A stretch of DNA of 64,000 bases from Candidatus Aenigmatarchaeota archaeon. GTDB lineage: Archaea; Aenigmatarchaeota; Aenigmatarchaeia; PWEA01; JACQIF01. Where the stretch lies: assembly GCA_016432325.1 (NCBI GenBank), contig CP066684.1, forward strand, positions 384,001 to 448,000, read 5' to 3'. Below are positions 338-59,371 of the stretch, one piece after another. The notes below the pieces were generated by a model that was not told the origin of the DNA, searched no databases, and saw nothing but the letters and a program-made list of their open reading frames with translations. How positions within the stretch are numbered: position 1 is the stretch's first letter; each line of letters begins with the position of its first letter. A program made the translations under genes and the position numbers.

Positions 338-361
338 ATGATGTGCGTCTTAACGCGCTGA
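338..361 (+). promoter_or_regulatory. K-turn-like motif in the rpl7ae leader (candidate L7Ae autoregulation site)
   Basis: ATGATG (box C-like), stem GTGCGT/ACGCGC, CTGA (box D); downstream of TATA TTTAAATA 298-305. Confidence 0.55.
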
Positions 362-425
362 AGGAGGCGTTTGAAACTGCGGTTTCGCGCCTCCCGGTTC
401 GTATTAACGCACTGAAGGAGGTGTT
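346..425 (+). repeat. 26-bp direct duplication (346-371, 400-425) flanking a GAAAC-TGCG-GTTTC hairpin
   Basis: CGTCTTAACGCGCTGAAGGAGGCGTT vs CGTATTAACGCACTGAAGGAGGTGTT, period 54. Confidence 0.85.
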
Positions 426-428
426 CGT

Positions 429-842
429 ATGGCTGAAGATTTGAGTAAGATTTCCGAACAGAATGTTCGGAATACTTCGAAAGAGGACCTTTCGAAGAAA
501 GCGCTTGAAGCGGTCGAACTTGCAAGGAGCACCGGTTCCCTCAGAAGGGGAACGAATGAAGTTACAAAGGCGGTAGAACGCGGACAAGCAGAACTGGTCG
601 TTATAGCAAAAGACACGGATCCGCCTGAAGTGGTCATGCACTTGCCGCCGCTCTGCGAGGAGAAGAACATTCCGTACGTTCACGTGCCTAACAAGGAAGA
701 GCTCGGACGCGCTTCTGGGATAGAAGTCAAGTGCGCCGCTATCGCAATAGCCAAGGCAGGCGAAGCGAAGAAACTGATAGACGAAATAAGAAAGGCGAAT
801 GGCATGGAGAGCAAATCGCCTAAGGAAAAAAAGAAAGAGTAA
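429..842 (+). CDS. rpl7ae: 50S ribosomal protein L7Ae with a 16-aa N-terminal insertion
   Basis: [38 protein letters not shown]; SD GGAGGTG. Confidence 0.97.
447..498 (+). repeat. Double-hairpin element, in frame within rpl7ae
   Basis: AAGATTTCCGAACA-GAA-TGTTCGGAATACTTCGAA-AGAGGACCT-TTCGAAGA; homologous to 9924-9978 and 10853-10918. Confidence 0.85.
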
Positions 843-852
843 GGTGATTTGA

Positions 853-1056
853 ATCCCAGTCGATGCCGTTCCGGCCGAAGTCGTTCAGTTGCTCGGACGC
901 AGCGGCGTCAAGGGAGTCTTCAAGGTTCGGGCGAAGGTATTGGAAGGACCGGACAAGGGAAAGATTCTCCTGCGCAACGTCATGGGCCCCATACGCAAGG
1001 GCGACATACTGATGCTTCGCGAGACTGAGATGGAGAGCGCCGGCGGGTTCGGTTAA
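853..1056 (+). CDS. rps28e: 30S ribosomal protein S28e (absent from the ORF track; apparent ATC start)
   Basis: [21 protein letters not shown]...[30 protein letters not shown]; conserved position between rpl7ae and rpl24e. Confidence 0.93.
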
Positions 1057-1065
1057 GGCGATTTT

Positions 1066-1248
1066 ATGGACTGCACATTCTGCGGCGAAACAATGCAACG
1101 GGGAAAGGGAAAGATTGTCGTCAAGAAGACCGGCGAAACGTCCGCATACTGCTCTTCAAAATGCGAGCACAACGCGCTTCTGGGCCGCAGCGCAAGAAAG
1201 ATTCAGTGGACGCGCGTGTCGCGCGTCGCCAGAGGCAAGGAGAAGTAA
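1066..1248 (+). CDS. rpl24e: 50S ribosomal protein L24e
   Basis: CTFCG...GKG...YCSSKCEHN...R...WT zinc-finger motif. Confidence 0.95.
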   Translation: MDCTFCGETMQRGKGKIVVKKTGETSAYCSSKCEHNALLGRSARKIQWTRVSRVARGKEK

Positions 1249-2946: not shown

Positions 2947-4671
2947 ATGCCAATCCGCCAACCCATCGTATCAGTACTTGGCCACGTCGACCATGGAAAG
3001 ACAAGCCTGCTGGACCGCATTCGCACATCGTCCGTTGCAGCGAAGGAAGCCGGCGGCATCACGCAGCACATCGGCGCCACTGAGGTGCCGCTCTCCACGA
3101 TAAAAGAGATTTGCGCGTCGCTGCTCAGGGAACAGCAGATTAAGATTCCGGGCCTCTTGTTCATCGACACGCCGGGACACGAAGCGTTCACGACGCTGCG
3201 TCGCCGGGGCGGTTCCATCGCCGATCTGGCCGTTCTGGTCGTCGACGTAACAGAAGGCTTCCAGCCGCAGACCATCGAATCGCTGACGTTCCTGCGCGAG
3301 TTCCGCGTGCCGTTCATCGTAGCCGCAAACAAGATAGACAAAGTCCGGGGTTGGGTTCGCCACGCAGGCACGTTCGCGGATTCATACAAGAAACAGAACA
3401 AGGAGACGCGCGAACTGCTCGACAACAAGATATACGAGCTGATGGGGCAGCTGAGCGAGCACGGCTTCGTGGCCGACCGCTACGACCGCATCTCGGACTT
3501 CAGGTCAACCGTCATTATCGTGCCTGTATGCGCGGCGAATGGCGAAGGCGTCCCGGAATTGATGGCGATGCTTATCGGTCTCGCGCAGCAATTTTTGACG
3601 CAAAAGCTCGAAATAAAGGGCGACATAGGCGCCGGTTCTGTCTTGGAGATAAAGGAGGTCAAAGGCCTCGGAACGACGATAGATGTGATACTTTATGACG
3701 GCGTCGCGCGCAAGGGCGACTTCCTGGTCATTGGAGGAGAGACGCCGATAGTGACGACGGTCAAAGGCATATTCAAACCGCGGCCGCTCGCCGAGATGCG
3801 CGTTGAGAGGCAGTTTGCTCCAGTCGATGAAATCATCGCGGCGGCCGGCAGCAAAATGGTCGCGCCGAATCTTGAGGGAGTCATACCGGGCTCGCCCATA
3901 CGCGTCGTTCCGCACAAGAGCGACGTGGATGCGGCTGTGCGCGAACTCAAGCGTGAGGTCGAAACGGTGACGTTCGAGAGCAGCAACGACGGCGTGCTCG
4001 TCAAGGCGGACACTCTCGGCGCTCTTGAAGCGATGATAAAGATTATCACATCCAAGGGAATTGCGATAAGGAAGGCCCGTATAGGCCCCGTATCGCGCAC
4101 GGATGTGATGGAGCAGCGCGGCGTGGCCGAACCGTACAACGTGGTAATCTTCGCGTTCAACGTTCCTGTCGCGCCGGAAGCCGAGGCGCTCAGGGAGAGC
4201 GTCCATATCTTCGCCGGCAACGTGATTTACAGGCTCATCGAGGACTACGTCGCGTGGACGCACACCAGAAAGGAGGAGCTCAAGCTTGCGCGCCTTGAAG
4301 GAGTGGTGCGCCCAGGGAAGATAAGGCTCCTGCCCGGGATGGTCTTCCACGCGGCCAAACCCGCCATAGTCGGCGTTGAAGTTCTCGGGGGTCTGATAAA
4401 ACCGGGATACTCATTAGTGAAGGAAGGACGCATCGTGGGCCGTTTGTTGCAGGTGCAACACGAAGGCGCGAACGTTCAGGAGGCAAAGACCGGCGACCGT
4501 GTCGCCGTATCGATAGAGGGAGCCACCGTAGGCCGCGGTTTGGAAGAACGCGACGTTCTATACACTCTGCAGAGCAAGGAGAACGTCAAGAAGCTCGAAG
4601 AGCTTAAAGACCTGCTCACGCGCGACGAGATTGACGTGCTGGAAGAGATAAAGGGGCTCATGGGCGGCTAG
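2947..4671 (+). CDS. infB: Translation initiation factor IF-2 (aIF5B)
   Basis: IRQPIVSVLGHVDHGKT, GGITQHIGA, DTPGHEAF, NKID. Confidence 0.98.
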   Translation: MPIRQPIVSVLGHVDHGKTSLLDRIRTSSVAAKEAGGITQHIGATEVPLSTIKEICASLLREQQIKIPGLLFIDTPGHEAFTTLRRRGGSIADLAVLVVDVTEGFQPQTIESLTFLREFRVPFIVAANKIDKVRGWVRHAGTFADSYKKQNKETRELLDNKIYELMGQLSEHGFVADRYDRISDFRSTVIIVPVCAANGEGVPELMAMLIGLAQQFLTQKLEIKGDIGAGSVLEIKEVKGLGTTIDVILYDGVARKGDFLVIGGETPIVTTVKGIFKPRPLAEMRVERQFAPVDEIIAAAGSKMVAPNLEGVIPGSPIRVVPHKSDVDAAVRELKREVETVTFESSNDGVLVKADTLGALEAMIKIITSKGIAIRKARIGPVSRTDVMEQRGVAEPYNVVIFAFNVPVAPEAEALRESVHIFAGNVIYRLIEDYVAWTHTRKEELKLARLEGVVRPGKIRLLPGMVFHAAKPAIVGVEVLGGLIKPGYSLVKEGRIVGRLLQVQHEGANVQEAKTGDRVAVSIEGATVGRGLEERDVLYTLQSKENVKKLEELKDLLTRDEIDVLEEIKGLMGG

Positions 4672-4726
4672 GCTGTCCGGGACTCGGCCGCGAAGCCTAT
4701 AAATCATTTCGTTCTCCATTCAGTGC

Positions 4727-4789
4727 ATGGACGCCGGGAAACCATTGGTTTCAATCGTCCATTGAGTAGACGGTGAAGTTCAATGGACG
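4727..4789 (+). repeat. Start-duplication hairpin cassette
   Basis: ATGGACG...GAAACCATTGGTTTCAAT-CGTCCATTGA...GGTGA...ATGGACG, period 56. Confidence 0.85.
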
Positions 4790-5391
4790 TACTTGACGCT
4801 ATCCAGAAAAGGCGCTCTGTCACGGAGTTCCAGGAAAAGAAGGTGGAAATGGAGAAGGTAGGAGTCCTTCTGGAAGCGATACGATGGGCTCCTTCTGCCG
4901 GCAACAGGCAGCCATGGGAAGTCGTCGTTATCGATGACCGGAAAACCATAGAGGATCTCGCGGATATCGCCCACAACCAACATTGGTTAAAGAAGGCGCC
5001 TCTGGTCATGGTGGTCTGCATCAACCACAAGCTGGCCGAAGGGACCTTCGGTGTCCGCGGAAAGAACCTTTACGCCATCCAGGCCACGGCCACGGCCGCC
5101 GAGAATGCGATGCTCACGGCGACCGAACTGGGACTGGGAACGTGCTGGATTGACGTCTACGATGAAGAGAAGGCGTCACGGCTTCTGGCCTGTCCCAAGC
5201 ACACTGTGCCTGTGATTGCGTTGGCCGTCGGATATCCGCTGGCTGTCCCAAAGCCTCCTCCCCGCTATGAGATAGCGTCCTTCTCCTACTACAACGGCCA
5301 CGGCAAGCTGCTCGAGTTCGAGTGGAAGGGCATTGCAGAGCACCTGAAAGAGTTCAAGGAGAGATTGCTGAAGAGCCTTGAGAAGTACTGA
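4783..5391 (+). CDS. Nitroreductase family protein
   Basis: AIQKRRSV, APSAGNRQPW, LGLGTCWI. Confidence 0.93.
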   Translation: MDVLDAIQKRRSVTEFQEKKVEMEKVGVLLEAIRWAPSAGNRQPWEVVVIDDRKTIEDLADIAHNQHWLKKAPLVMVVCINHKLAEGTFGVRGKNLYAIQATATAAENAMLTATELGLGTCWIDVYDEEKASRLLACPKHTVPVIALAVGYPLAVPKPPPRYEIASFSYYNGHGKLLEFEWKGIAEHLKEFKERLLKSLEKY

Positions 5392-5415
5392 AGACGGAAC
5401 CGACGTCTGCTAAAA

Positions 5416-5505
5416 TCAGATGAAGACTGCTATAAGCATAACCATTATCCCGGCCAAGACCAAGAGCCTCTGGTTCTGCCTGGCGTACCAACCCATACTG
5501 TTCAT
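5416..5505 (-). CDS. Putative 29-aa single-TM small protein
   Basis: MNSMGWYARQNQRLLVLAGIMVMLIAVFI; TATA-like CTTAAATA upstream. Confidence 0.4.
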   Translation of the reverse strand: MNSMGWYARQNQRLLVLAGIMVMLIAVFI

Positions 5506-5612
5506 AGGTCTCGCACTAGTTTAGTAAATGATAGTTATTTAAGCGCGTTGTGTCTGCTCCACAACGAATTGATAAGCCATTCTCTCGTGAACGCAGAATA
5601 GTAGGAAGGGCG

Positions 5613-5751
5613 TTCCATACTTACCTGCCTTGGGGTAGGTTGGGTAAATGATGGAAGGGGTTCTTCCATACTTACCTGCCTCGAATTAGGTTGGGTAAGT
5701 GATGGAAGGGCGGGGTGTGGGGTGGTAGAATAGGATCGATCCGCCCTTCCA
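5613..5751. repeat. Two 51-bp tandem units, each an imperfect hairpin, plus a third hairpin
   Basis: TTCCATACTTACC...GGTAA(A/G)TGATGGAA at 5613 and 5664; TGGAAGGGCGG/CCGCCCTTCCA 5703-5751. Confidence 0.85.
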
Positions 5752-5894
5752 GTGTGGGGGTGTGTCATTGAATGACAATGATGATGCGGTTTGTTCATTT
5801 TTCCGCATACACTGGACACACTTGATTCATCCCGTGCAAAATAACGGGATAGGAGCGTACAACATTCTGTACGCCCCTCGTTGAAACAATGGGT

Positions 5895-7028
5895 TTACCT
5901 TATCATGGGTATTCCGAGGCTGTCGGAGTACGACACCGAGGAGCTCTCCCTGGTTTCCGCGCGGCCCAGCACGTACGGGCTCTTCACGCCGGTCACAATC
6001 GTTATGACCTGCACGCGGCCGTTGAACTCAGGCAGTACGCGCGCTCCCCAGATGACCTGCGCTTCAGGGTTGAGGTGCTTTATCACGTACTCTCCAATGG
6101 TGTTGATCTCTTCCAGCTTCAGGTCTTCTCCGCCGATGACCTGCACAATCGCCCCGTTGCCTCCTGCAATGTCCGCTTCGAGCAAGGGGTGCTTCAGGGC
6201 TTTTGCCACGGCCTGCGAGGCGCGTGCGCCAGAGTCGTCGTCTCCTATGCCTATCAGAGCTACGCCACCCGAGTGCATTATCGCCTTCACGTCAGCGTAG
6301 TCCAGGTTCACGAGCGACGGCTGCGTTATGGTCTCTGTAAGACCCTTTATCATCGTCGATACGAGCTCGTCTGCGACAGCGAACGCCTGCTTTACGGGCA
6401 GGTCGCCTGCGTACTGCAGCAGCTTCTGGTTCTCTATCACGATTACCGTGTCTGCAGCCGCGCGGAGCCTTGAAAGGCCGTCTTCTGCCTTGTTTATGCG
6501 GGTTCCTTCCATCTTGAACGGCATCGTCACCGTCGCTATTACGATGGCGCCCATCTGTTTCGCGATTTCGGCCACAACAGGCGCGCAACCCGTTCCTGTT
6601 CCGCCACCGAGCCCTGTCGTTATGAAGAGCATGTCGCAGCCGTCGAGGGCTTCCTTTATCTCGCGCCTGCTCTCCTCCGCGGCCTTGCGGCCTACCTCAG
6701 GATATCCTCCTGCTCCGAGACCCTTGGTAAGTTCCTTTCCTATCAGAATCTTCTTGTGGGCCTTTATCGAAGACAAGTGTCTGGCGTCTGTGTTCAGCGC
6801 TATCGTGGACGCTCCTGATATTCCCATTTCGGTAAGCGTGTTTATCGTGTTTGAACCGCCGCCTCCGCAACCCGCAACAAGTATGCGTGCCTGGTGCATC
6901 TCGAGTCCGAACTCCTCGCTTATCTTCTGGGCGTCAGAGCCTGTCGGTCCGCCTGCCAGAGAAGCCTGCTTCTGTGTTCCAGCGGCGCCGAATGTTTTTT
7001 CGAATGCGTTCTGTATTATTGAATCCAT
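5895..7028 (-). CDS. ftsZ: Cell division protein FtsZ (FtsZ2-like)
   Basis: GGGGSN, GLGAGG, GGGTGTG, NLDYADV, GGVA, C-terminal LGIPMIR tail. Confidence 0.97.
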   Translation of the reverse strand: MDSIIQNAFEKTFGAAGTQKQASLAGGPTGSDAQKISEEFGLEMHQARILVAGCGGGGSNTINTLTEMGISGASTIALNTDARHLSSIKAHKKILIGKELTKGLGAGGYPEVGRKAAEESRREIKEALDGCDMLFITTGLGGGTGTGCAPVVAEIAKQMGAIVIATVTMPFKMEGTRINKAEDGLSRLRAAADTVIVIENQKLLQYAGDLPVKQAFAVADELVSTMIKGLTETITQPSLVNLDYADVKAIMHSGGVALIGIGDDDSGARASQAVAKALKHPLLEADIAGGNGAIVQVIGGEDLKLEEINTIGEYVIKHLNPEAQVIWGARVLPEFNGRVQVITIVTGVKSPYVLGRAETRESSSVSYSDSLGIPMIR

Positions 7029-7163
7029 TTCAAATCCTCCCTCCTTTGTTTTTGATGACTTTTGGTGATCGTGAAGTTCTCACGGTCCCCCGATTTGTAG
7101 ACTGTAAAATATACTTTCGAGCGTAGATACGCTTTTTAAGTACCTTTTACAGACTATCCTCTA

Positions 7164-7320
7164 GAAGTTGTTTGCCCAAACTCTTCCGGACACTTGCCCA
7201 AGTGTTCTTCGTTACCAAATTCGGTGCGTGAAGGTTTCACGTGAACCCGTTGCCCAACGGGTGCAGTCCAATCGTTTGCCCGAACGAAGCGGATTGCGAG
7301 TGTGAAACACGGTTTCTGCA
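7164..7320. other. Cluster of four hairpins sharing a GCCC loop (candidate ncRNA or operator array)
   Basis: GCCC loops at 7174, 7196, 7252 and 7278, each with a different stem. Confidence 0.6.
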
Positions 7321-7493
7321 CGGTTTTAGTGTTTTTACTACCCGTGAGGACGCCTTATAAACATTTGTATAATGGAGAATATACATCCGACTAGACGAAT
7401 TGCAAATCGACAACTTACGAAGTTCTTGGAAAGCGAGGAAGTTCGAAACGCGTGCACATTCCGACAAAACGTGAAGGTTGCCGTCGCGCGGTC

Positions 7494-8054
7494 TTACTGT
7501 TTCTTCGGCCTTTCGAGCGCGTTGATTCTCTTGAGTTCACGCTCTATCTTGTCTATCGCGCGCTCGACGTCCGCGACGTTGCGCCCGCCTGTGCAAACTA
7601 TCTTCCCAGAGCCGAAAAGAAGGAACGCAACGTTGGGTTCGTCCATCCTGTAGACGAGGCCCGGGAACTGTTCGGGTTCGTATTCTGCATTCGGCAGGGA
7701 AAACGCTATCTCGTTAAGCTTGAGCGTGCCTTCGATGCGGGCCGAAGCCACTATATTCTCTATCCGTATCTTGGGCTTGTCGTTGATTTCGACCCCGATG
7801 CTCTTTATCGCTTCGATAACCTTGCCCATCGCTTTCCGCGCGAGCGCAGGCGAGCGGGCGCCTGTGCAGACGACCTTGCCGGAAGTGAATATCAGGGAAG
7901 CGGCCTTGGGCTCCTTCATGCGATAGACGAGGCCGGGGAACTGTTCGGGTTCGTATTCTGTGCCGGGAACCCTGGCGACAAGCTTGTTGAGCGGGACCTT
8001 GACGTTCAGAGTAGCTGACGCAACCACGTTTTCTATCCGAATATCCTTTGCCGT
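7494..8054 (-). CDS. tbp: TATA-box binding protein (start uncertain: ACG 8054 or TTG 8069)
   Basis: Two repeats of IENV/IVAS...EYEPEQFPGLVYRM...F.SGK.VCTG. Confidence 0.97.
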   Translation of the reverse strand, partial: TAKDIRIENVVASATLNVKVPLNKLVARVPGTEYEPEQFPGLVYRMKEPKAASLIFTSGKVVCTGARSPALARKAMGKVIEAIKSIGVEINDKPKIRIENIVASARIEGTLKLNEIAFSLPNAEYEPEQFPGLVYRMDEPNVAFLLFGSGKIVCTGGRNVADVERAIDKIERELKRINALERPKKQ

Positions 8055-8171
8055 ACGGATGCACCCCAAAGAACTGAGGGTATATAAAGGGTAGGGTATT
8101 TAAAGGCCGCGGACGGGCATGATTTGACCACTTACAAATGACTATTTAAGCGTTTGGTTGTTCTTTAAGCT

Positions 8172-8558
8172 GTGGCAAAACCGCGATCGAACAGACACCT
8201 GAAAATGAACGAACTCTTGCGTCAAGAAGGACCTATGTTCCACGACGACCTGTCAAAAGCACTCGGTATTAACACGGTCTCCCGCCTGTCTCAGGTGTTC
8301 ATGGATGGCAGGCTGGAAGGCCTGCATGTGGACCGCTTCCTCTACACAATAGGCAAGCAGTTTGGGATTTACTGGTCTACCGGCAACGGCTCTTACAATG
8401 AACGGATGGATAACGTTAACCGTGCCGATGCCGCGGATATGGTGGAACGCAGGATAGGCGCGCCGATAAAGGGCTACCGCGAAAGCCACTTTGCATATCT
8501 AATCCGCGGTCTCAAACGCACCGAAAGCGGCGTGTGGGTCGTGGATGAAGAAGCCTAA
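8172..8558 (+). CDS. Hypothetical protein, possible N-terminal HTH
   Basis: 128-aa ORF with own TATA; LLRQEGPMFHDDLSKALGI pattern. Confidence 0.55.
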   Translation: MAKPRSNRHLKMNELLRQEGPMFHDDLSKALGINTVSRLSQVFMDGRLEGLHVDRFLYTIGKQFGIYWSTGNGSYNERMDNVNRADAADMVERRIGAPIKGYRESHFAYLIRGLKRTESGVWVVDEEA

Positions 8559-8941
8559 GTCTCGTCAGCAAAGTCCTTGAGCGTCCGCTCACCAAGAAAC
8601 TTCTTCCTCGCGCCTTCCATCGTTCCGGATACGCCCAGAGAGTGGGGTATCACGCGGACGCCGCCTATGCTCGTTATCAGGGCCAGCGCGACGCGCACGT
8701 TCTCTACCTGCACATGGCCACAACGCACGAGGCCGCGCTGCCGCTTCTCGTCCCAGGCGTCCTTGACGAACCATACGTTCGTGCGCGCTGTCCCGAGCTC
8801 GCCCAGAAGAGTCAAAAGCGCATTCCAGAAGGCGTCCACTATCGCATCAAACCTGAGAGGCTTCTCGCTTATGATTTCAAAAGCCAGGTAGCGCTTCTTC
8901 TCGCGCAGGGTAGGAGGAAGCGTTTTCGGTTTGTCCGCCAT
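8555..8941 (-). CDS. rnp2: RNase P protein component 2 (Pop5/Rpp14)
   Basis: LPPTLREKKRYLAFEI, GELG, GVSGT. Confidence 0.95.
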   Translation of the reverse strand: MADKPKTLPPTLREKKRYLAFEIISEKPLRFDAIVDAFWNALLTLLGELGTARTNVWFVKDAWDEKRQRGLVRCGHVQVENVRVALALITSIGGVRVIPHSLGVSGTMEGARKKFLGERTLKDFADET

Positions 8942-8995
8942 TTACTGGTCACCTCTAATTCTTCCGAGCTGTAAAATTGAAACCGAAGGTTTCAT
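8942..8995 (-). other. Linker mini-ORF cassette MKPSVSILQLGRIRGDQ between rnp3 and rnp2
   Basis: TAA-t-ATGAAACCTTCGGTTTCAA...GAGGTGACCAGTAA-ATG. Confidence 0.7.
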
Positions 8996-8996
8996 A

Positions 8997-9704
8997 TTAC
9001 TCCTCGACCTCCACGCCCTTGTACAGTATCTTGCCTGCCAGCTTCTTCTTGTTCGCCTGCACGCGCGCCTCGCAGGTGTCGCTCACGGCGCGCATGGACT
9101 CCTCCAGGGTCAGCCCGAGAATCTGCGCCAGGGCCGCGAGTTCACGGGGATCGCGCAACCCCCACGCGTCCTTTGCGCCTGAAGTGACCACGATGGGCGT
9201 GCCGAACTCCTTGCAGAGCATCACGTTGCGTTCCATGTGGTTCAGGACGTGCGTGCGGACGCGCTTGTATGTCGTCAGAAGCTCCCCCATATTCAATTCG
9301 AGCGCAACGCCGTTCTGGGCCGCGCTCTGCGTGACCACGTGGTCTATGCCAGAGTCTACGCGCTTGAACTCGGGATGCGCTATGACGTCGACGCGGCCGT
9401 CTTCGGCCGCGGCCCTGTTTATCGCGTAGTCCCCGCCTGAAACAAGCACGAGCTCTGCGATTTCCCTGTACTTCGCAAGGGCGCGCTTCAGGGTCTTTAT
9501 CGAATCGGCCTGTATTTCCACGGCACCGACAAGCTCGAGGCCGCTTTTCTGCGAGGCGTCGCGCAGACGTTTCCTGAGCTCCCTGAAAGCGTCGAATTTC
9601 TGGTGGTATTCGACGACAGCGAGTCCTGAGAATCCGAGTGTCGCGGCTACCTCGACCGTCTTTTCCAGATCCTGCGCGTGAACGTGCAAGTCATAGAATT
9701 TCAT
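8997..9704 (-). CDS. rnp3: RNase P protein component 3 (Rpp30)
   Basis: MKFYDLHVH, GGDYAINRAA, DSGIDHV, SGAKDAWGLRDPREL; adjacent to Pop5. Confidence 0.93.
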   Translation of the reverse strand: MKFYDLHVHAQDLEKTVEVAATLGFSGLAVVEYHQKFDAFRELRKRLRDASQKSGLELVGAVEIQADSIKTLKRALAKYREIAELVLVSGGDYAINRAAAEDGRVDVIAHPEFKRVDSGIDHVVTQSAAQNGVALELNMGELLTTYKRVRTHVLNHMERNVMLCKEFGTPIVVTSGAKDAWGLRDPRELAALAQILGLTLEESMRAVSDTCEARVQANKKKLAGKILYKGVEVEE

Positions 9705-9923
9705 TCTATGTTTCCCTCACAGAGTTCGTGAACTCATAAATTTGCATACGTGCGGCTACCCCACAGATTGTTAATGTGAAGAGCCTCTTAAATAACCAAA
9801 AATCTGCCGGGAAACCTGTCCGATATCTTTTTATACTCGGATTGCAACGCATATAATTCTCAAACGCTTCGCGCAAGCGAGGAGAAAAAAAGGAAATGTC
9901 AGAAGAAGGCAATTCCACAGCGG

Positions 9924-9978
9924 AAGATTTTCGAACATCCTCGAGTGTTCGAAATACTTCGAACCGCCGGTTCGAAGA
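9924..9978 (+). repeat. Double-hairpin element, intergenic copy
   Basis: AAGATTTTCGAACA-TCCTCGAG-TGTTCGAAATACTTCGAA-CCGCCGG-TTCGAAGA. Confidence 0.85.
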
Positions 9979-10027
9979 GCACTGTAGTTTCATTCTAGAG
10001 CTCGGCATTTATTAAAGGTGAATTCTC

Positions 10028-10621
10028 ATGGTCAAACATCTCAAACTTGCTTCTCGACTCCAAGGTGCGTGGGAAACCGGACTGACCGGAGAAAAAATAT
10101 CCATAGGCTGCCGCGTTCCCAAGGAATTCTTCGTCACGAGCGGCGCGGGAGAGAGCGACATAACGATACACGCGGGCTCTTTCGACGAGGCGATGCGCGA
10201 CGCGGGAATAGAGAACTACAACCTGATGCACTACTCCTCCATAATGCCCGCGGGCGCGGTCGAAGTCGAGCGCCCGGAAGGCGCTGTGCACGGCTCCGTT
10301 CTGGAGACGATAATGGCCGTCTCCAACAGCGAGACAGGCGTGCGCGCCACGGCCGGCGTCGTGATGGGTTGGGTCTACGACAAGCGCACAGGCAAGAAGA
10401 TCGGAGGGCTCGTCGCGGAACACAACAGCCACGAAGACGAGGAGCACGCCGTGCGGATGCTGCGCGCGAGCGTAGAGAACATGTTCAAGAACAGATACGG
10501 CAACGAAGCGGAATTGCGAGACGTGCGCATCGTGACAAAGAGCATTGTGCCTGAAAAGCGCTATGGCACGGCCATGGTAGTCGTCGGTTTCACCAGTTAT
10601 GAAGTGCCTGTCCTGAATTAG
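10028..10621 (+). CDS. pdaD: Pyruvoyl-dependent arginine decarboxylase
   Basis: FVTSGAGES, SFDEAMRDAGIENYNLMHYSSIMP (Ser-Ser autocleavage site). Confidence 0.92.
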   Translation: MVKHLKLASRLQGAWETGLTGEKISIGCRVPKEFFVTSGAGESDITIHAGSFDEAMRDAGIENYNLMHYSSIMPAGAVEVERPEGAVHGSVLETIMAVSNSETGVRATAGVVMGWVYDKRTGKKIGGLVAEHNSHEDEEHAVRMLRASVENMFKNRYGNEAELRDVRIVTKSIVPEKRYGTAMVVVGFTSYEVPVLN

Positions 10622-10899
10622 TACCAGTCGACTTCGGGGCCTTTAACGTGTCTCTCCTGTTCGTGGGGCTGACAAGCCTTCTGGAGCTGGACCAGACTGA
10701 CGTGATGCATGGCCATAGCATAGGAGAACGCATCTATCTGTTTTAGCATCTCGGCAACCCGATATCCCAGATCTTCCATTTCCCCACTGGACACCGATGC
10801 GCGAGGACCATAGATAAACATGACTACGTCGCTAGCCGTAGTGCCTGTTTTGAGATTTTCGAAACCACAGTTTCGAATACTCAGAATCGGCGCATTCAT
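10618..10899 (-). CDS. Hypothetical 93-aa ORF whose N-terminus is element-derived
   Basis: ATGA overlap with the rpl15e stop; no recognisable motif. Confidence 0.4.
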
Positions 10900-10919
10900 C
10901 CATAGTGCCGATTCTGAGA
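10832..10919 (-). repeat. Synonymously recoded duplication of the rpl15e 3' end around a double hairpin
   Basis: TCT CAG AAT CGG CAC TAT GGA TGA vs TCT CAA AAC AGG CAC TAC GGC TAG. Confidence 0.9.
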
Positions 10920-11465
10920 CGGGCGCACTTTCTCCGCGCCTTTGCCGACGCTTCTCATGCCGCGCGACTTCCTTCCCGCAGACGTCAAGCCACGGAATAC
11001 GCGCCCCCTATTGGCTCCGTCAACGACCCACGAGACGTCACGGTCGCTGCGCACCGCCGGATGCGAATAGTCGACGAGAACAATCTCATACCACTCGCTC
11101 TTGCCGTCGCGGCCGACCCAGTATGAATTCAGGACTTCCAGATTGACAAACTTCTTCGCGGCGCGCTCTTCGGCAATCCACTGGTGCGACTTCTTCGGAG
11201 TTGCCCAGCGGCCCATGCTCCTCGGTTTGCGACCGCCCGACCAAGAGGGCTTCTTGCGGCCGCCGACATCGACGCGCACGCGCGCCATGACAAAGCCGGA
11301 CTTCGCCTTGTAGCCCAGCGCACGCGCGCGGTCTATCCGGGTGGGACGTTCGATGCGCGTAACTGTGTTTTCGGAACGCCATTTGATAAGTCTCTGTTTC
11401 CAAAGCTCTCCGAGCGCTTCTTGCGGCTTGTTCCATTTCTCTGCCACATACTTGTAGAATCCCAT
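10896..11465 (-). CDS. rpl15e: 50S ribosomal protein L15e
   Basis: [41 protein letters not shown]; ATG 11465 after SD GAGGTG. Confidence 0.98.
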
Positions 11466-11477
11466 CGTATACACCTC

Positions 11478-11525
11478 TTTTGGTTTGCGACCAATCCTTC
11501 AGGCGTGCACGCCCACATCGGAGGT
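11478..11525 (-). promoter_or_regulatory. Structured 5' leader of rpl15e (candidate r-protein leader)
   Basis: TCCGATGT-GGGCGTGCACGCC-TGAAGGA K-turn-like hairpin plus TTGGT-CGCAA-ACCAA hairpin next to the SD. Confidence 0.5.
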
Positions 11526-11578
11526 TTAGTGTAGTGAAAACCCAAGCTTTATATAGACGGCGGGACGTAGCAAAAACC

Positions 11579-11645
11579 ATGGGAGCCGCATGAAACTGAA
11601 GTTTCAAAGCTCCCATGAAGAATTGGTGATGTCATGGGAGCCGCG
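11579..11645 (+). repeat. Start-duplication hairpin cassette
   Basis: ATGGGAGCCGCA-TGAAACTGAAGTTTCAAA-GCTCCCATGA...GGTGA...ATGGGAGCCGCG, period 55. Confidence 0.88.
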
Positions 11646-11849
11646 CTGAAGTTCGTGTTCGGGCTTGTCTTGCTTCTTGTGGGACTCTACCTGATCGCGC
11701 CGATCGAGATACTCTCCAAACCTGCGCTGTTCGACTGGTACGGACCGTTCGTGGCTTTGGCCAAGGGCGCGATACCTCCTTTCCTCATACTGCTCGGCAC
11801 GCTCATCGTGTGGATTGAAGGCGAAGAGCTGAAGAGCGGGAAGAAGTAA
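11634..11849 (+). CDS. Small 2-TM membrane protein
   Basis: Two hydrophobic helices; WIEGEELK tail. Confidence 0.8.
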   Translation: MGAALKFVFGLVLLLVGLYLIAPIEILSKPALFDWYGPFVALAKGAIPPFLILLGTLIVWIEGEELKSGKK

Positions 11850-11888
11850 GAGGTATAAATCCTTTATTGTCGTATTCTCCGTGTAACC

Positions 11889-13007: not shown

Positions 13008-13063
13008 CGGAATAGCGGCACGCCACACGTTCGGCTTATTATCTTTCTCTGCATAATGTTTCT

Positions 13064-14353: not shown

Positions 14354-14373
14354 GTTCCCTCGCATTCACACTC

Positions 14374-16512: not shown

Positions 16513-16563
16513 ACACGACGTTCTGACGTCGATTATTTAAGCGATTGTTGAACAAGCATACGC

Positions 16564-17139
16564 ATGTGGCTAGTCGACGTCTTCCACAAGATGCGGCGCG
16601 GACCTCAGATTCTGACGCAGAAGGACATAGGACTCATACTCGGGATGACAGGCGTGTCGAGCCCGTGGCGCGTGGTCGAGGCCGGCTCAGGCTCAGGCGC
16701 GCTCACGATGTTTCTGGCGAATGCAGTGCAGCCCAAAGGTCGCGTCTACTCATACGACTGGCGCAGCGAACACCAGGAGATCGCCAAGGAGAACGTCAAA
16801 CGCGCCGGGCTCACGAAATACGTGGAGTTCATTCACGGCGACATCGCCGCAGGAATCGAACAAAAGGACGTTGACATGGTTGTTCTGGATTTGGCAGAAC
16901 CTTGGCTGGTAGTGCCGCATGCCGAACGCGCACTGAAGGAAGGGAGCTTCTTCGTGTCTTACGTGCCGACGTTCGAGCAGATGAAGGAAACAGTGACGAC
17001 GCTCAGAGGCCACAGGTTCACGCGAGCGAAGGCGTACGACTATTCGATGCGCGAGTATCAAGTGGAAGAGAACGCCACGCGGCCCGAGAACATGGGCCTC
17101 GTGCACACAGGATTCCTTATATTCGCACGAAGAATCTAG
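16564..17139 (+). CDS. trmI: tRNA (adenine-N1)-methyltransferase, catalytic domain only
   Basis: RGPQILTQKD, EAGSGSG, LDLAEPW, TRP...HTGFL. Confidence 0.88.
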   Translation: MWLVDVFHKMRRGPQILTQKDIGLILGMTGVSSPWRVVEAGSGSGALTMFLANAVQPKGRVYSYDWRSEHQEIAKENVKRAGLTKYVEFIHGDIAAGIEQKDVDMVVLDLAEPWLVVPHAERALKEGSFFVSYVPTFEQMKETVTTLRGHRFTRAKAYDYSMREYQVEENATRPENMGLVHTGFLIFARRI

Positions 17140-54787: not shown

Positions 54788-55273
54788 ATGCTCGGCTTCG
54801 TGGAACGATATCTTGGATTCAGGGTAAACTGGACGAGGGTGGCGTTCCTCGCGGCGGCCGTTGTCGCGATAGCCGTCGCCGTTCTCGGCCTGCTTCCCGC
54901 GTCTCCTGCAGGCATTCCATTTGCGCCAAGCCAGACGGAATTCCAACGCCAGGAACAGCAGTTTCTGGAAAAGGTGGAGAGCGGCGAAGTGGAACCTGTT
55001 CTCACGCAGGAGGTCCGCGTGACGAGCGCCGGCTTTGACCCGCAGTTCGCACTGATAGAGTTCGTGCAGGCAACGCAACCCGGAGAGCGCGGGGTCGCGC
55101 GGGTGCTGATAAGGAACGCGGACTCGCGCGTACGGACTATCGTATTGGGACAGAACGACGTTCGCACGCTCACGCCTGGATATCAATTCACGTTAACGTT
55201 CAACGCACCGACAGAAATCGAGATATGGGACAAGGACGCGCCTTCTGTAAGAGGAAAGATTTTCGTCAGATAG
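54788..55273 (+). CDS. Membrane-anchored cupredoxin-like protein lacking copper ligands
   Basis: TM anchor; GFDP, NAD..VRT, LTPG..F..TF..P, GKIFV. Confidence 0.65.
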   Translation: MLGFVERYLGFRVNWTRVAFLAAAVVAIAVAVLGLLPASPAGIPFAPSQTEFQRQEQQFLEKVESGEVEPVLTQEVRVTSAGFDPQFALIEFVQATQPGERGVARVLIRNADSRVRTIVLGQNDVRTLTPGYQFTLTFNAPTEIEIWDKDAPSVRGKIFVR

Positions 55274-55317
55274 GCCGACGAAAACCCGAGAGGCATCTCA
55301 AGATCTTTGTAAGGCGA
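55256..55317 (+). repeat. Synonymously recoded duplication of gene end KIFVR around two hairpins
   Basis: AAG ATT TTC GTC AGA TAG vs AAG ATC TTT GTA AGG CGA, period 44. Confidence 0.85.
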
Positions 55318-55323: not shown

Positions 55324-56133
55324 TCAGCTCTTGGGAATATCCTTGGTCTTCGCCATGACGGTCGTGTTCACCCAGATTTTCTCCACGGGGTCCACGCGCA
55401 GCGACGAATTGAAGCCGAAGACGCGGCCAACCGTTATGTTCACCGTGTTAGCCGAGCCTGTGAAGTTTATCATGTAGACGCTCGTTCCGGTGCGGGAAAC
55501 GGAGCTTGTGAATGTGCGGTTCAGGACCGATATGTGCAGGGTCATGTTTCCGGACGTTTCGGATATCGTGGATATGTTGGCCGCGGAAACGCCTGACGTG
55601 AGCGGCACCACAAAGACCTCATAACGGGTGATGAAGTTCGCGCTCGTATCCTTCTGGAGAACGCTTATGTTGTTCTTCGCAAAGTCCGAATAGTTGTAGG
55701 CGGCGTTCATGCCTGTTATCGTGAAAAACGACTGGTTGGCCGGAACGCTCGCATTGAAATCCAGCGCGTATGAAAGGTTCATCTGGTCGGCCAGGAAATC
55801 GCGGTAGGCCTTGAACGACACGTTATAAGGCTGGACGCGCGGCGCCTTGTCGGTGAAGTTCACGAACGTATGGGTTCGATTGGCCGTGACGCGAACGCCG
55901 ACATCCGCGAGCTTTTGCACGTGCGAGCCCGCGTAGAGGAACGCCTGCGGGATGCCGATGTCCTCGCTTGTGGCGAGTTCGAGGTCGCTGGCAAAGACCC
56001 TGTAGTTGGTCAGAAGCGAAACAAGCGAGACGGCTATGAGGACGGACATCAATGTGAAAACGATTCCCTTTGCGACGTTTTCAGTCTTCCCTCTTCTTCG
56101 GGAAGGCGTAAAGACTATTCCGCGCCGGCTCAC
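55324..56133 (-). CDS. Pilin-like protein with duplicated cleavage motif
   Basis: RG|IVFT...KG|IVFTL. Confidence 0.82.
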   Translation of the reverse strand: MSRRGIVFTPSRRRGKTENVAKGIVFTLMSVLIAVSLVSLLTNYRVFASDLELATSEDIGIPQAFLYAGSHVQKLADVGVRVTANRTHTFVNFTDKAPRVQPYNVSFKAYRDFLADQMNLSYALDFNASVPANQSFFTITGMNAAYNYSDFAKNNISVLQKDTSANFITRYEVFVVPLTSGVSAANISTISETSGNMTLHISVLNRTFTSSVSRTGTSVYMINFTGSANTVNITVGRVFGFNSSLRVDPVEKIWVNTTVMAKTKDIPKS

Positions 56134-56621
56134 AAGGACACCCCGAGACGGACCTTGGCTATGGCCGTCATGTTCTTCACCTGCGACGACGCGGATTCGT
56201 TGACCATTATGGGAACGGGCCTGGACGCGTATACCGCGTCCCTTTCCTCCGGTATCATATTGACCGTCAACGTGCGGTCGAACGTGAGCCCGCCGGTGGG
56301 CGTTACGTTGAAATAGTCCACGATGAACGCATAGCGGACAAACGACGGCAGCGTCTGGTTCACAGTGGCGTTTATCGCGTCCGCGTTCCTCGAGTCGAAC
56401 GCGCCTCTCTCCTCCATCACGGCCAGCGTGTCGATGGACATGCGTTCGAGGACGGCCTCGCTTCTCGACGGCTGTTCGACGGTGAAGGAGAACGACAGGA
56501 TTGCAAAGGCTATTATGGCCGCGCCGATGAGCGAATCGACTGTGAAGACAAAGCCCTTTGTGCTGTTTTCAAGCTTCCCGCGCTGCGCTTGTGAAGCAGT
56601 AAAAACAAAGTTTTTGTCCAT
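56130..56621 (-). CDS. Pilin-like protein with duplicated leader motif
   Basis: KNFVFT...KG|FVFTVD. Confidence 0.85.
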   Translation of the reverse strand: MDKNFVFTASQAQRGKLENSTKGFVFTVDSLIGAAIIAFAILSFSFTVEQPSRSEAVLERMSIDTLAVMEERGAFDSRNADAINATVNQTLPSFVRYAFIVDYFNVTPTGGLTFDRTLTVNMIPEERDAVYASRPVPIMVNESASSQVKNMTAIAKVRLGVSL

Positions 56622-56622: not shown

Positions 56623-57249
56623 TCATGGCCTCCACAGCGTCACGCGCAGAGTGCAGTTGCGCGAATTCTCCGTCATCACGTAGCGGTCTATTGAAATCTG
56701 TTCCTTGGCGCCCGCCGGCTGGGCGCCTACTGTCAGGTTCGTGGACTGGACCGTGCAGTTGGAGCCGCCGCTTGTCAGCAGCTGCACGTAAAGGCTGTTT
56801 GGTCCTGTCGAGAGGTTGCCGCGCAGGTCTTTGGCCGTCATCCGCGTCAGCGCGATGAGCTTGTCATCCGCAAGGCGATGGTCTCCGTATGCCAATCCCA
56901 CGCTCTTGATATTCGTCGAGTTGTACCAGCCGTCGGGCTCTCCTGACGTAAGAACGAGCTGGTCGCTAAGCCCGATGAGCCTGTCCTGCGTTCTCCTGAA
57001 CTCCTCGGAGTCTGCCACGGAATGGGATATGGAAGACTCCGCGTGCAGGACGCCCGCTATCGATATCGTGAATATGACAAGCGCCAACACGACGTCCAGA
57101 GAGACGGCCTGTCCCTTTCCCGACAGAAGGAGGGAAAACTGAAACCGCGTTTCAGATTTTCCTGCCCCAAGGGCGGGAAAATCGTTCGCACGCGGCGAGG
57201 CCGCGGCCCCGCCGTCTTCAGCACGTCTGCACATTCGTACCGTCCGCAT
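56623..57249 (-). CDS. Pilin-like protein with palindrome-expanded leader
   Basis: KG|QAVSLD; TSGEPDGW. Confidence 0.82.
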   Translation of the reverse strand: MRTVRMCRRAEDGGAAASPRANDFPALGAGKSETRFQFSLLLSGKGQAVSLDVVLALVIFTISIAGVLHAESSISHSVADSEEFRRTQDRLIGLSDQLVLTSGEPDGWYNSTNIKSVGLAYGDHRLADDKLIALTRMTAKDLRGNLSTGPNSLYVQLLTSGGSNCTVQSTNLTVGAQPAGAKEQISIDRYVMTENSRNCTLRVTLWRP

Positions 57250-57796
57250 TCCAGCACTTCACCTCTATATTGTCACCCGTGTTGTTGACGTTCACGAGCG
57301 CCGTTCTCAGATCCGCGTCCTTTACCTTCGCCGTTATCAGTCTCGCCGATATTATAAGGGTCTCGTTCCTCGGCCCCGGCCACGTCATCTCCACCTTGCG
57401 ATATTTGCCGAGAACCTTGAACGTGGTCGCGTTCTGCACTCCCGCCCGGGCGGCTACCGTGATGTTCGTCTGGAAGCCCTTGCCGCCTATGGCCGCGGCG
57501 TCGATGGCGCCGGACACCTTCTCCACCTCGCGCTGCGCCGCAAACTGCTGGCGCGCCTTTTCGACGTTCAGGTTGCGTTCGTTGAGGGAAAATAATATGA
57601 TTGAAGCGAGAACAAGGACGATGCCTGCCACGACCATGAACTCGATCCCTGTTTGCGCCTTTCCCGTGCACGAGAAGCTTCGCTTCTCGGCATGTTCGGC
57701 CTTCGGGCCGAACTTTTCGGACCGAGTCCGAAAATGTCGGGACCTGTGGGTCCCGTACACCCGCAGGAGGGAAACCGTTTTCACATTCAATACCAT
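57218..57796 (-). CDS. Pilin-like protein with palindrome-expanded leader
   Basis: KA|QTGIEF. Confidence 0.82.
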   Translation of the reverse strand: MVLNVKTVSLLRVYGTHRSRHFRTRSEKFGPKAEHAEKRSFSCTGKAQTGIEFMVVAGIVLVLASIILFSLNERNLNVEKARQQFAAQREVEKVSGAIDAAAIGGKGFQTNITVAARAGVQNATTFKVLGKYRKVEMTWPGPRNETLIISARLITAKVKDADLRTALVNVNNTGDNIEVKCWNADGTNVQTC

Positions 57797-57800
57797 TAAA

Positions 57801-58262
57801 TTACCCCGCAGACGGCCTGAGGCTCTGCACCTCAAGCGTATAGTTCATGGCAACAGAGCCTCCCGAACCGCCCTGGCTGACTCCCCTGAAAACGTACGTG
57901 CCTGCCGCGCCGGGCAGCGTCCCCGTAACGTTGCAGGCAGTCGTCGCCGTCACCGCGCTTTCCGCGTCCTTCGACGTCAGTATCAGCTTTATCGTCCTGT
58001 TGCCTATAGAGCTGGCCATCAGGTTAACCTCCCGCGGAATGTAGACGTCCCTGCGCGACGTCGTGTTTTTCGGCGCCGTGCACAGGAAATTCGCCATGTC
58101 CGCAAGCTCGTTCGCGGCCACGCGCGCCTCTGCGACGCGCAGCGAGGCTGTCTGGTTCGCGAATAGGTTCAGGGAAGTCGCGAGCACCACGACCAGCGCC
58201 GCCGTCAGGAAGACCGCTAGCATCATATACTCTACGGACGTCTGGCCGGCGCGCGACTCCAT
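57801..58262 (-). CDS. Class III signal peptide pilin (QxSxE type)
   Basis: RAG|QTSVEY. Confidence 0.85.
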   Translation of the reverse strand: MESRAGQTSVEYMMLAVFLTAALVVVLATSLNLFANQTASLRVAEARVAANELADMANFLCTAPKNTTSRRDVYIPREVNLMASSIGNRTIKLILTSKDAESAVTATTACNVTGTLPGAAGTYVFRGVSQGGSGGSVAMNYTLEVQSLRPSAG

Positions 58263-58300
58263 GTGCTAGATTGGAGGGCCTCATATAAAACCGCCCGGCC

Positions 58301-58711
58301 TCATTTGGCCGTTATGTTCACGGCCGTCGCTTCACGTTCGACCTCGAACGCGTAAGTACCGCCTACCGACGGCAGGCTGCCGTTGAGTTCGCATCTCGAC
58401 GTGGCCGACACGAACTCGAGCCTGTCCTTGTAGCGCAGGGCGAACGCGACTGTCCTGTTGGCGACGGAACTGTTCATTGGGTCAATGTGAAGCGGTACGG
58501 GAAGCAGTACCTCTGTCTTCGAACCTTGCGGCTGAAGGCATATCTCGTTGGCCGCGTCAGTGAGCGACGTAACGGTAAGCCGGGCCTGGCTCAGCGAGCC
58601 CTCAAAGGAGCGGCCGCCCATGAAGTCTGCGGATATGAAGAACAGCACCGTGAAGAGCAGCGCGCCGATGAGGGAGATGGAAATATATTCTATCGCGGCT
58701 TGCGCTTTCAT
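58301..58711 (-). CDS. Class III signal peptide pilin
   Basis: MKA|QAAIEY; paralog of 57801. Confidence 0.85.
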   Translation of the reverse strand: MKAQAAIEYISISLIGALLFTVLFFISADFMGGRSFEGSLSQARLTVTSLTDAANEICLQPQGSKTEVLLPVPLHIDPMNSSVANRTVAFALRYKDRLEFVSATSRCELNGSLPSVGGTYAFEVEREATAVNITAK

Positions 58712-58750
58712 GACCAATCTAAGGCCGTCCCCGTATAAAACGGCCCGTCA

Positions 58751-59371
58751 TCAGTCCGTCTGGGCTCTGGCCTTGAGTGTCGTCGACGGCGCATAGATGA
58801 CGTTCGTCTCGGTATCGGTGTAGTTGAATGTCAGCTTTACGGAGTAGATGCCTCCTATGCTCTTGGTTATGCCGTGAAGCGTCGTGTTTATGGGCAGGAC
58901 CCGCGTCGCCGTCTCTCCGGGGAACAGTGTTGCAGGCGTAACGTTCGTCACCAGTTGCGTCAGCGTGGACTTGTCTATTTCTGTTACGTTAATCGAATTG
59001 AGCGTTATCTTGTTGGCGCCGTTGTTTTGGACCACCACGGTGAACGTATCGTTGACGTTGTCCCCGCCCGTAACGCCCCATTTGTGGCCGATGACTGCCA
59101 GCTGTTCGAACTGTTGCGAAAGCGACGAACCCGAGCTTGACAAGGAGAATCCTATATCGCCTATGTTGAGGCTGAAGATGGCCACGCCCACGATAACCAC
59201 TATGGCGATGGCCCACGCGTAGTTCATGAGATACTCGATGGCGGCCTGTCCGCGCCTGTTCCCCGACGGTATCTCAACACCACGCCTGCTGGCGCGGTTC
59301 ATTAGATACTCGATGGCGGCCTGTCCGCGCCTTTGCATTTGCCGTATTGGTTTTCCTGCCGTCCTTTTCAT
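58751..59371 (-). CDS. Pilin with tandemly duplicated signal-peptide motif (start 59371 or 59386)
   Basis: RRG|QAAIEYLMN present twice, then YAWAIAIV. Confidence 0.87.
   Translation of the reverse strand: MKRTAGKPIRQMQRRGQAAIEYLMNRASRRGVEIPSGNRRGQAAIEYLMNYAWAIAIVVIVGVAIFSLNIGDIGFSLSSSGSSLSQQFEQLAVIGHKWGVTGGDNVNDTFTVVVQNNGANKITLNSINVTEIDKSTLTQLVTNVTPATLFPGETATRVLPINTTLHGITKSIGGIYSVKLTFNYTDTETNVIYAPSTTLKARAQTD

Follow-up and report, generated by a model that had tools for sequence, protein, structure and literature searches.

Hairpin units that duplicate gene ends in an Aenigmatarchaeota genome, with spare rpl15e ends that differ almost only at silent sites

Why should a small genome carry the ends of its genes twice, with a hairpin between the copies and with differences that fall almost entirely at silent sites? 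The question arises from 64,000 nt of contig CP066684.1 (positions 384,001 to 448,000; hereafter the window) of a Candidatus Aenigmatarchaeota archaeon, a tiny groundwater archaeon whose genome, assembled from a metagenome, measures 875 kb and is 88% coding. It is sharpest at rpl15e, where sequence past the stop codon should decay, yet the spare gene ends are nearly unchanged in protein. The initial annotation had proposed at least nine loci with the order copy, hairpin, copy and a period of 43–75 bp. All nine are present in the genome and were confirmed in independently assembled contigs; the layout held, with a measured period of 44–75 nt.

A hairpin-TA-hairpin family at gene ends

Each unit is built of two hairpins, 1 and 2, joined by a TA linker, and has the near copy, which adjoins the gene body, on one side and the far copy on the other (Table 1). 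One arm of hairpin 1 is the target copy (a start, a stop region or a tRNA end), paired with the unit's own complementary arm, and hairpin 2 is the family core. Only the inner core and the TA linker are common to all units, the outer arms being site-specific, and folding puts both ends of a unit close together. Units can stack as arrays with a fixed junction. Their polarity relative to the DNA was fixed in 15 of 15 cases, whether at a start, a stop or a tRNA end, and an identical core loop lies on the gene-directed strand at starts and at tRNA ends. TATA boxes are likewise duplicated, tRNA 3′ ends are echoed in 6 of 21 candidates, and the same hairpin core occurs inside a tRNA-Phe intron of this genome. 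Because the tRNAs here carry multiple introns, relaxed ARAGORN predictions were treated as noise. Multi-unit arrays, tRNA-end and TATA targets and the insert at 57095–57190 go beyond what the initial annotation described.

The core pattern GAAAC-N3-6-GTTTC occurs 54 times genome-wide against 6–8 expected from Markov-5 simulations, which bears out the earlier view that shared cores tie the loci into a family, and 26 double-hairpin modules were counted across the genome and its relatives against 0 in three simulations. Rfam gave no family match at gathering score. Generic terminal-repeat scans were too noisy for statistics; a core-anchored scan resolved 19 of the 54 cores, against 9% with swapped flanks. 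Silent-only echoes were also present at the histone and TFB genes, while gene-swapped controls gave mostly non-silent differences, so that the silent-site bias noticed earlier lies well above chance. Echoes in weakly conserved genes show non-silent differences, and a few are clearly decayed. Among relatives, units are present or absent by locus, the empty-site orthologs proposed as a check were found, and the same layout recurs in five species. The trait is patchy, since 800 kb of G019, from the same order and another family, contain no silent-only echo; by count of the core pattern alone, enrichment extends to G074, G188, G245 and G017. Viral contigs contained no match to one strict module pattern. 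The units form a genome-wide hairpin-TA-hairpin family in this Aenigmatarchaeota genus, and the earlier view that the family is mobile is supported.

Table 1. Units and associated genes in the window (G and L numbers are our labels for relatives and other genomes)
Position	Strand	Feature	Remarks
349–426	+	rpl7ae leader unit	Copies 349–372 and 403–426, including ribosome-binding site; core 373–386; period 54
429–842	+	rpl7ae host gene	PF01248
435–497	+	rpl7ae in-frame 48-nt double-hairpin module	Filled in L236; empty in G001, L237, L238
4727–4789	+	Nitroreductase-start unit	Far start 4727; core 4738–4752; arm 4756–4765
8938–9012	-	Unit at RNase P p30 / Rpp14/Pop5 gene junction	Empty in G001, L227, L228
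9924–9977	+	Free-standing double-hairpin module upstream of arginine decarboxylase gene	
10832–10855	-	rpl15e far copy, peptide and stop as in near copy	7 silent differences; out of frame
10856–10879	-	TA linker and core hairpin of rpl15e unit	
10880–10891	-	rpl15e arm	Complementary 12/12 to near copy, 9/12 to far copy
10896–10919	-	rpl15e near copy	Working last 7 codons and stop
10896–11465	-	rpl15e host gene	PF00827
11579–11645	+	Unit at start of 71-aa protein	Far 11579–11590, core, arm, near 11634–11645
22383–23936	-	RtcB RNA ligase	Bears on RNA-level removal only
29090–29166	+	kaiC-like gene-start unit	Period 59; empty in G001
55256–55317	+	Gene-end unit	Near 55256–55273, far 55300–55314
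56053–56121	-	In-frame 54-nt unit, pilin-like leader	Longer in-frame insert in G001
56541–56615	-	In-frame 57-nt unit, pilin-like leader (FVFT locus)	Empty in G001
57095–57190	-	Multi-hairpin insert with core, leader of next pilin-like gene	
59222–59332	-	In-frame 75-nt unit, pilin leader	Copies 35/36 identical

The in-frame module of rpl7ae comprises the original codons (435–449), hairpin 1 (452–472), TA and hairpin 2 (475–497). Its copies differ at 7 of 15 nt, all silent, with a period of 48; the second copy is the 3′ arm of hairpin 2, so that it was this generic stem that had been taken for a recoded duplication. The far copy resembles the empty-site orthologs, and in one G001 gene, too, the far copy is closer than the near copy to the peptide of the empty ortholog. 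The rpl7ae leader unit is absent from four relatives, and its arm fits the far copy better; the complementarity of an arm to one copy, as first described, is clear at rpl15e. Other units supply new signals: at the nitroreductase start (period 56) a new SD lies in the loop and the working start is at 4783, and the unit at the RNase P gene junction provides an SD and the stop-start overlap. The unit of the 71-aa protein (period 55) is filled in L228 and empty in L227.

At 55256 the copies differ at 4 of 15 nt with a period of 44, and the far copy, at 55300, has lost its stop; G001 keeps the near copy and the arm with a decayed far copy. The copies at 56121 and 56067 likewise differ at 4 of 15 nt (period 54). 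At the FVFT locus (period 57), where three differences in 12 nt had been reported, inclusion of the two preceding codons gives four silent and two non-silent differences. In the G001 ortholog of the pilin at 59332 the far copy is strongly diverged. Lengths of the in-frame leader inserts differ by multiples of three, with the frame kept, and some of the second copies at pilins are probably the unit's own hairpin stem.

The spare ends of rpl15e

In the window the two rpl15e copies differ at 7 of 24 nt, all silent, with a period of 64. The last eight codons stand in two or three tandem copies in each of five species (the source and four relatives); the site is filled in all five with an identical junction, and L227 and L229 carry whole-unit arrays. 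Silent sites between these species are saturated, and yet the seven spare ends of the five deeply diverged species show one amino-acid change in total. First and later copies are separated by 36 silent and 2 non-silent base differences, and the spare copies among themselves by 98 silent against 12 non-silent pairwise differences, all 12 of which trace to one codon. All seven arms match their own copy (11–12 of 12 positions, against 7–10 of 12 for the next copy), middle copies retain perfect arms, and the variable paired sites of the unit are compensatory in 4 of 4 cases. Adjacent copies differ as much as copies from different species (5.6 against 5.2). A hand count of G-U pairs between arm and next copy gave 9 in the sense and 6 in the antisense direction, which is uninformative as to a strand bias.

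Given 36 silent against 2 non-silent differences and arms that match their own copy, the copies outside the ORF either were in use until recently or are under protein-level selection. The spare copies bear the signature of such selection, and the pattern suggests that unused copies take turns as the working end. The terminal copies are old and position-orthologous, and the copy types keep one cyclic order throughout (post hoc p about 0.009), as would be expected of stable inheritance more than of random shuffling. The 5′ and 3′ halves of the copies look mosaic. Pattern scans for further rpl15e relatives gave chance matches only, and the joints listed for four runs of a single study, whose contigs drop rare variants, included no skip at rpl15e.

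Cassette exchange and its alternatives

The reading that we prefer, with confidence evenly balanced for and against it, is that the units are non-autonomous DNA micro-cassettes of about 45–75 nt that join the DNA at one exact junction, take the place of the old end and may later leave. A unit would fold as a single-stranded dumbbell and be inserted, and sometimes removed, with the copy's first base as the exact boundary, the incoming copy pushing the resident gene end outward. Each copy would serve in turn as the working end over time, within or between lineages, so that divergence between the copies would be confined to silent sites. Pairs that are still nearly identical probably soon disappear, which would leave the diverged ones, and an insertion would persist only if the unit restores the signal that it breaks. 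The residues needed at rpl7ae, and probably at some pilin leaders, happen to be spelled by the unit's generic stem. As a guess, the folded DNA would be nicked or recombined by an enzyme of the host or of a virus; could the site-specific arm arise by fold-back synthesis? Capture of diverged ends by short-patch recombination, one of three options offered by the initial annotation, comes close to this reading.

In favour of the cassette reading are the stacked arrays with one junction, the silent-site excess at rpl15e, histone and TFB, the arms that fit their own copy, the uniform polarity, the tRNA-end and TATA targets, the presence or absence of units among relatives, and the G001 far copy that is closer to the peptide of the empty ortholog. 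Against it count the missing mobilising enzyme, the lack of an excised allele among the listed joints, the filled rpl15e site in all five species, the constant cyclic order of the copies, and the lack of a match to the one module pattern in viral contigs. The proposed search for HUH and RT genes found none: no Y1 HUH, RT, Cas1, resolvase, IS110 or TnpB was detected in the genome, which is 90% complete by markers. Two tyrosine recombinases score 39 and 24 bits with TIGR02249, far below the cut-off of 265 for an integron integrase; one of them sits in a tRNA-flanked island. The window had been said to hold no candidate enzyme; it does encode RtcB, with no shown link to the units.

An absent mobile-element enzyme would be expected if a first insertion were followed by ordinary recombination, short-patch or unequal, between copies and with alleles of other strains or paralogous pilins, which would add or remove units and promote spares to the working position; we consider this explanation unlikely. 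The near-identity of the pilin pair at 59332, beside a deeply diverged pair in G001, looks like recent homogenisation, and the mosaic halves of rpl15e copies point the same way. However, such recombination predicts arm mismatches or identical neighbours, neither of which is seen at rpl15e, and it leaves the fixed junction and polarity unexplained. Retention of the units in DNA, with occasional removal from RNA or ribosome skipping and with the far copy translated in place, would suit the stable copy order, the old terminal copies and the fold that joins the unit ends; EndA and the RNA ligase RtcB are both encoded, and a tRNA-Phe intron carries the same hairpin. We nevertheless regard it as improbable. 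No strict bulge-helix-bulge that would remove a unit was found at any register at 11 window loci or in the units of relatives, and the relaxed form gave three scattered matches only, the tRNA-Phe 59/60 intron control being detected as a relaxed form. Element orientation tracks the DNA and not the transcript, TATA boxes are among the targets, and several far copies are decayed. Together with the frame-keeping leader inserts, whose lengths vary by multiples of three, the missing splice motif and the DNA-strand polarity weaken the earlier option of removal at the RNA or translation level.

The earlier options also included a rewriting of the near copy that is error-prone or templated by the hairpin and is then filtered by selection, with the far copy left as a frozen recent fossil; we find this distinctly improbable. 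Far copies that resemble empty-site orthologs (at rpl7ae and in the G001 gene) and the non-silent differences in weakly conserved genes favour it, but rpl15e would require seven recent events independent of one another, with 3–7 silent changes apiece and almost no others, and rewriting of the near copy alone fails for spares that differ among themselves almost only silently. It is also at odds with the perfect arms of middle copies, the lack of an RT, and the variable columns of the rpl15e copies, in which no adenine bias was present. Strain-chimeric assembly or neutral slippage scars, for which the metagenomic origin of the assembly and the few decayed echoes might speak, seem scarcely credible: window positions 3050–21465 are matched at 100% identity by contigs of three sequencing runs, which disposes of the suspected chimera at rpl15e, the layout is shared by five species, change in spare copies is silent-only, and the control G019 has no such echoes.

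Whichever mechanism holds, some process periodically uses the rpl15e spares, either precise cycling of DNA cassettes or an unrecognised RNA or ribosome skip. The units show selfish DNA living in a compact genome by rebuilding the signal that it interrupts, and they give a concrete lead on the origin of archaeal tRNA introns. The rpl15e end is a defined 64-base junction and is directly testable. A bolder proposal, which we hold less likely than not, is that DPANN archaea harbour a new class of DNA dumbbell cassettes that lack genes, rely on a host enzyme for movement, build their own target-specific arm and rotate synonymous ends through essential genes and whose core, common to tRNA introns, may link gene-end insertion to intron gain.

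Comparison with known systems

No description of such units was found in the literature, searched mostly without subscription papers. REP/BIME or IS200/IS605 ends would call for a Y1 HUH transposase or TnpB, diversity-generating retroelements for an RT and adenine-specific variation, and casposons or CRISPR for a Cas1-family integrase, none of which was found here. Translational bypass, as in byps and T4 gene 60, is needed to make the protein and relies on matched take-off and landing codons; at the units matching codons are present, and every gene is complete without a hop. The coding palindromes of M. jannaschii are small palindromic repeats in frame within genes. Rickettsia palindromic elements and MITEs (PMC10969869) resemble the units at rpl7ae and the pilin leaders in being small palindromes in frame within genes. 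In contrast to both, our units have arms that derive from the target, and their duplicated termini remain synonymous, with no common terminal inverted repeats, near-identical copies or detected cognate transposase. Integrative elements such as e14 and phage 21 at icd, and casposons, restore a tRNA or gene 3′ end. As with these elements and with insertion by long target duplication (PMC2853133), the target end is duplicated, the gene stays intact and tRNA 3′ ends are used; however, our units are about 60 nt long and gene-free, have many unrelated targets and hold an inverted target arm. Archaeal bulge-helix-bulge introns (PMC5829648) share the core, seen in the tRNA intron, and the EndA and RtcB background, but no splice motif surrounds the units in mRNAs.

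The units resemble integron cassettes in their arrays and in an arm that matches the unit's own start. The integron attC site is a folded single-stranded site whose outer arm fits the start of its own unit better than that of the next. Unlike attC, the outer stem here lacks the conserved AAC/GTT triad and is target-specific, AAC/GTT lying at the tip of the inner hairpin. Archaeal integrons carry gene cassettes with attC sites (bioRxiv 10.1101/2022.02.06.479319), whereas our units have no cargo gene or integron integrase and are dispersed at dozens of gene ends. In Rhs/VgrG loci, according to the part of PMC8125069 that cites Jackson et al. (2009), an incoming 3′ end pushes out its predecessor, and orphan ends stack downstream and may reattach later. 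The 3′ ends stacked downstream of an intact rpl15e are similar to what that account describes. Rhs tips are modules of kilobase size, with toxin and immunity parts, that alter function; here, with no toxin tips or immunity genes, the exchanged ends are synonymous stretches of 7–12 codons in housekeeping genes, every unit comes with a hairpin arm of its own, and the targets extend to 5′ ends, tRNA ends and promoters.

Hairpin units in the genome and its relatives

The genome under study (G000) is a single contig of 874,869 bases, the window being bases 384001-448000. G001, a Ca. Aenigmatarchaeota MAG, belongs to the same genus and is the nearest relative, with proteins ~63% identical at the median; all 90 of its contigs were compared, together with rpl15e or rpl7ae contigs from further relatives. 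The initial annotation had described at least nine loci (window 346-59332) at which recoded gene termini are duplicated around hairpin micro-insertions. Recounting on the sequence found every named locus, with periods and difference counts as described. Contigs 100% identical to window 3050-21465 are present in three sequencing runs, all from one study and possibly the source of the assembly itself; because of this identity, the suspicion of a chimeric assembly falls away for that stretch. Loci elsewhere, where they have orthologs, are supported by comparison across species.

The core GAAAC-N3-6-GTTTC occurs 54 times in the genome, versus 6-8 times in simulations. Of these cores, 52 fall outside called genes and 39 are at most 110 bases ahead of a start, compared with 25 ± 3 when intergenic points are drawn at random. 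Searches for the double-hairpin module (hairpin-TA-hairpin) gave 26 instances in G000 and its relatives and none in simulations. The hairpin-unit phenomenon is real and exceeds chance. An extended core has 7-15 copies in other Aenigmatarchaeota (G074, G188, G245 and G017) versus 0-2 in most of 250 genomes; scanning of G019, from another family, revealed no such echoes of gene ends, and the units had no match in Rfam.

Anatomy, polarity and targets

Resolved units have the far copy at one end, followed by the core hairpin, a short linker, the arm, a loop and finally the near copy. In 15 out of 15 cases it is the near copy that borders the gene body: 12 starts have this order on the sense strand and three ends have it on the antisense strand. 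At starts and tRNA 3′ ends alike, the core loop seen most often is carried by the strand that leads into the gene; unit orientation therefore follows the DNA and not the transcript. Targets include start codons with their SD, the stop regions of rpl15e, histone and TFB, TATA boxes, and tRNA CCA ends (6 of 21 candidates). Most tRNA genes observed in G000 are multi-intron. Further features are listed below.

Further features observed (G000 positions on contig C1; L227 is a contig from a relative)
Sequence	Position	Feature
Window	331-447	Upstream ORF in frame through the rpl7ae leader unit, overlapping the rpl7ae start, in which the two copies encode nearly identical octapeptides
Window	338-343	Box C-like motif, rpl7ae leader
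Window	358-361; 412-415	Box D-like motif, in both copies of the rpl7ae leader unit
Window	5600-5710	Intergenic pair of imperfect direct repeats, each ~55 bases with hairpins inside; not related to the core, and minor variant contigs diverge at this site
Window	36411-36500; 40111-40230	Palindromic stretches in two more pilin-like leaders, resembling in-frame inserts
G000	178650-178760	5′-end array: two stacked units ahead of a gene start, each supplying an SD and a start of its own
G000	277000-290500	Island-like region abutting a tRNA gene and ending in a tyrosine recombinase (~395 aa, cysteine motif at the C-terminus)
G000	776800-784200	Island-like region ending in the same kind of recombinase
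G000	850342-850415	TATA-duplicating unit in the divergent promoter of the EndA gene
G000	757376	Unit near-identical to that of the EndA promoter
G000	851840-852060	tRNA-Phe with three introns, two with the family core flanked by TA
L227	9830-10000	rpl15e modules at both gene ends, among them a silently different spare start

Selection and turnover of the copies

The rpl15e end is filled in all five species having this C-terminus, and in two of them (L227 and L229) it carries three copies and two units. All twelve copies start at the identical base, and apart from a single Gly-to-Glu change their seven residues and stop do not vary. Between first and later copies, 36 differing bases are silent and 2 are non-silent, where neutrality predicts ~19% silent; the nominal p is 7e-11 even when 45% silent is allowed, the pairs not being independent. 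Arms match their own copy at 11-12 of 12 positions and the next copy at 7-10 of 12. Of the paired columns, four vary, and every one of them does so in a compensatory way. Pairing cannot be the source of the signal, since variation in the unpaired half of the copies is also almost exclusively silent; the His-Tyr codons of the terminal copy do, in two species, pair with a downstream arm. Silent sites among the five species are saturated, about half of the shared codons differing, and a neutral spare copy of such age would be unrecognisable. Spare copies have therefore either been selected in place or all been working ends recently. One cyclic order of copy types holds in every array (post hoc p about 0.009). 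Codon choice in the copies departs from genome-wide usage: Arg codons have a purine in third position without exception, and Ser is mostly encoded by a rare codon.

The rpl7ae insert is shared with the relative on contig L236 and absent from three others. The two filled species do not differ in its second copy, and the far copy has Leu changed to Ser in L236. The proposal of a recoded duplicate does not hold for this gene: the insert stem recurs at two unrelated G001 loci (L148 and L166), and the second copy is a generic module, kept by selection, whose stem spells the needed residues. The leader's box C/D-like motifs may form a K-turn for L7Ae autoregulation, with the unit inserted inside it. 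Such autoregulation is known from Sulfolobus. Relatives' rpl7ae leaders have a similar small hairpin.

Near copies of the pilins and of locus 55256 also appear to resemble family stems. Far copies decay in places: that at 55300 lacks its stop and is gone in G001, and those of the pilins lack the glycine of the cleavage motif. In weakly conserved genes the echo differences are non-silent, and one such pair has its far copy, not its near copy, matching the empty ortholog. An out-of-frame pilin far copy of G001 differs silently at 6 of 7 shared codons, while the same pair is identical at 35 of 36 bases in G000; pairs have thus been renewed after the species split.

Proposed displacement, its rivals and known systems

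What is observed comprises the layout and polarity of the units, their arrays, the tracking of each copy by its own arm and the signature of selection. As the best reading, we give an even chance to a process in which whole units would displace the resident gene end at the DNA level, the copies serving in turn as the working end. Units would be excised and re-enter, presumably through an enzyme. Genome searches found no Y1 transposase, RT, Cas1, resolvase, IS110 or TnpB; G000 has two tyrosine recombinases, which are not integron integrases, one EndA gene and, inside the window, an RtcB gene. The joints listed for four runs contained no excised allele, although contigs drop rare variants.

Among the alternatives, plain unequal recombination ranks highest and is itself unlikely. 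Skipping of units in RNA or by the ribosome is less probable again. No splice motif brackets the units, and inserts are in frame (48, 54, 57, 60 or 75 bases) wherever the far copy is the sole start, the frame being kept even in the longer G001 ortholog of the 54-base pilin insert; such inserts are thus read through rather than removed. The frame is arbitrary wherever the loop supplies a new SD and start. One-sided rewriting of a gene end is improbable, and an artefact or neutral scar highly so.

A literature search of incomplete coverage found no description of such units. They share a logic with integron cassettes and their attC sites, yet defining tests place them outside these, and likewise outside DGRs and casposons. 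They work like Rhs C-terminal displacement (PMC8125069), yet do not belong to it by its defining tests, nor to BHB introns (PMC5829648) or MITEs/RPEs (PMC10969869) by theirs. The units are a variant of small palindromic elements with an unplaced behaviour: spare gene ends that spell the same peptide are stacked in arrays and selected at the protein level.
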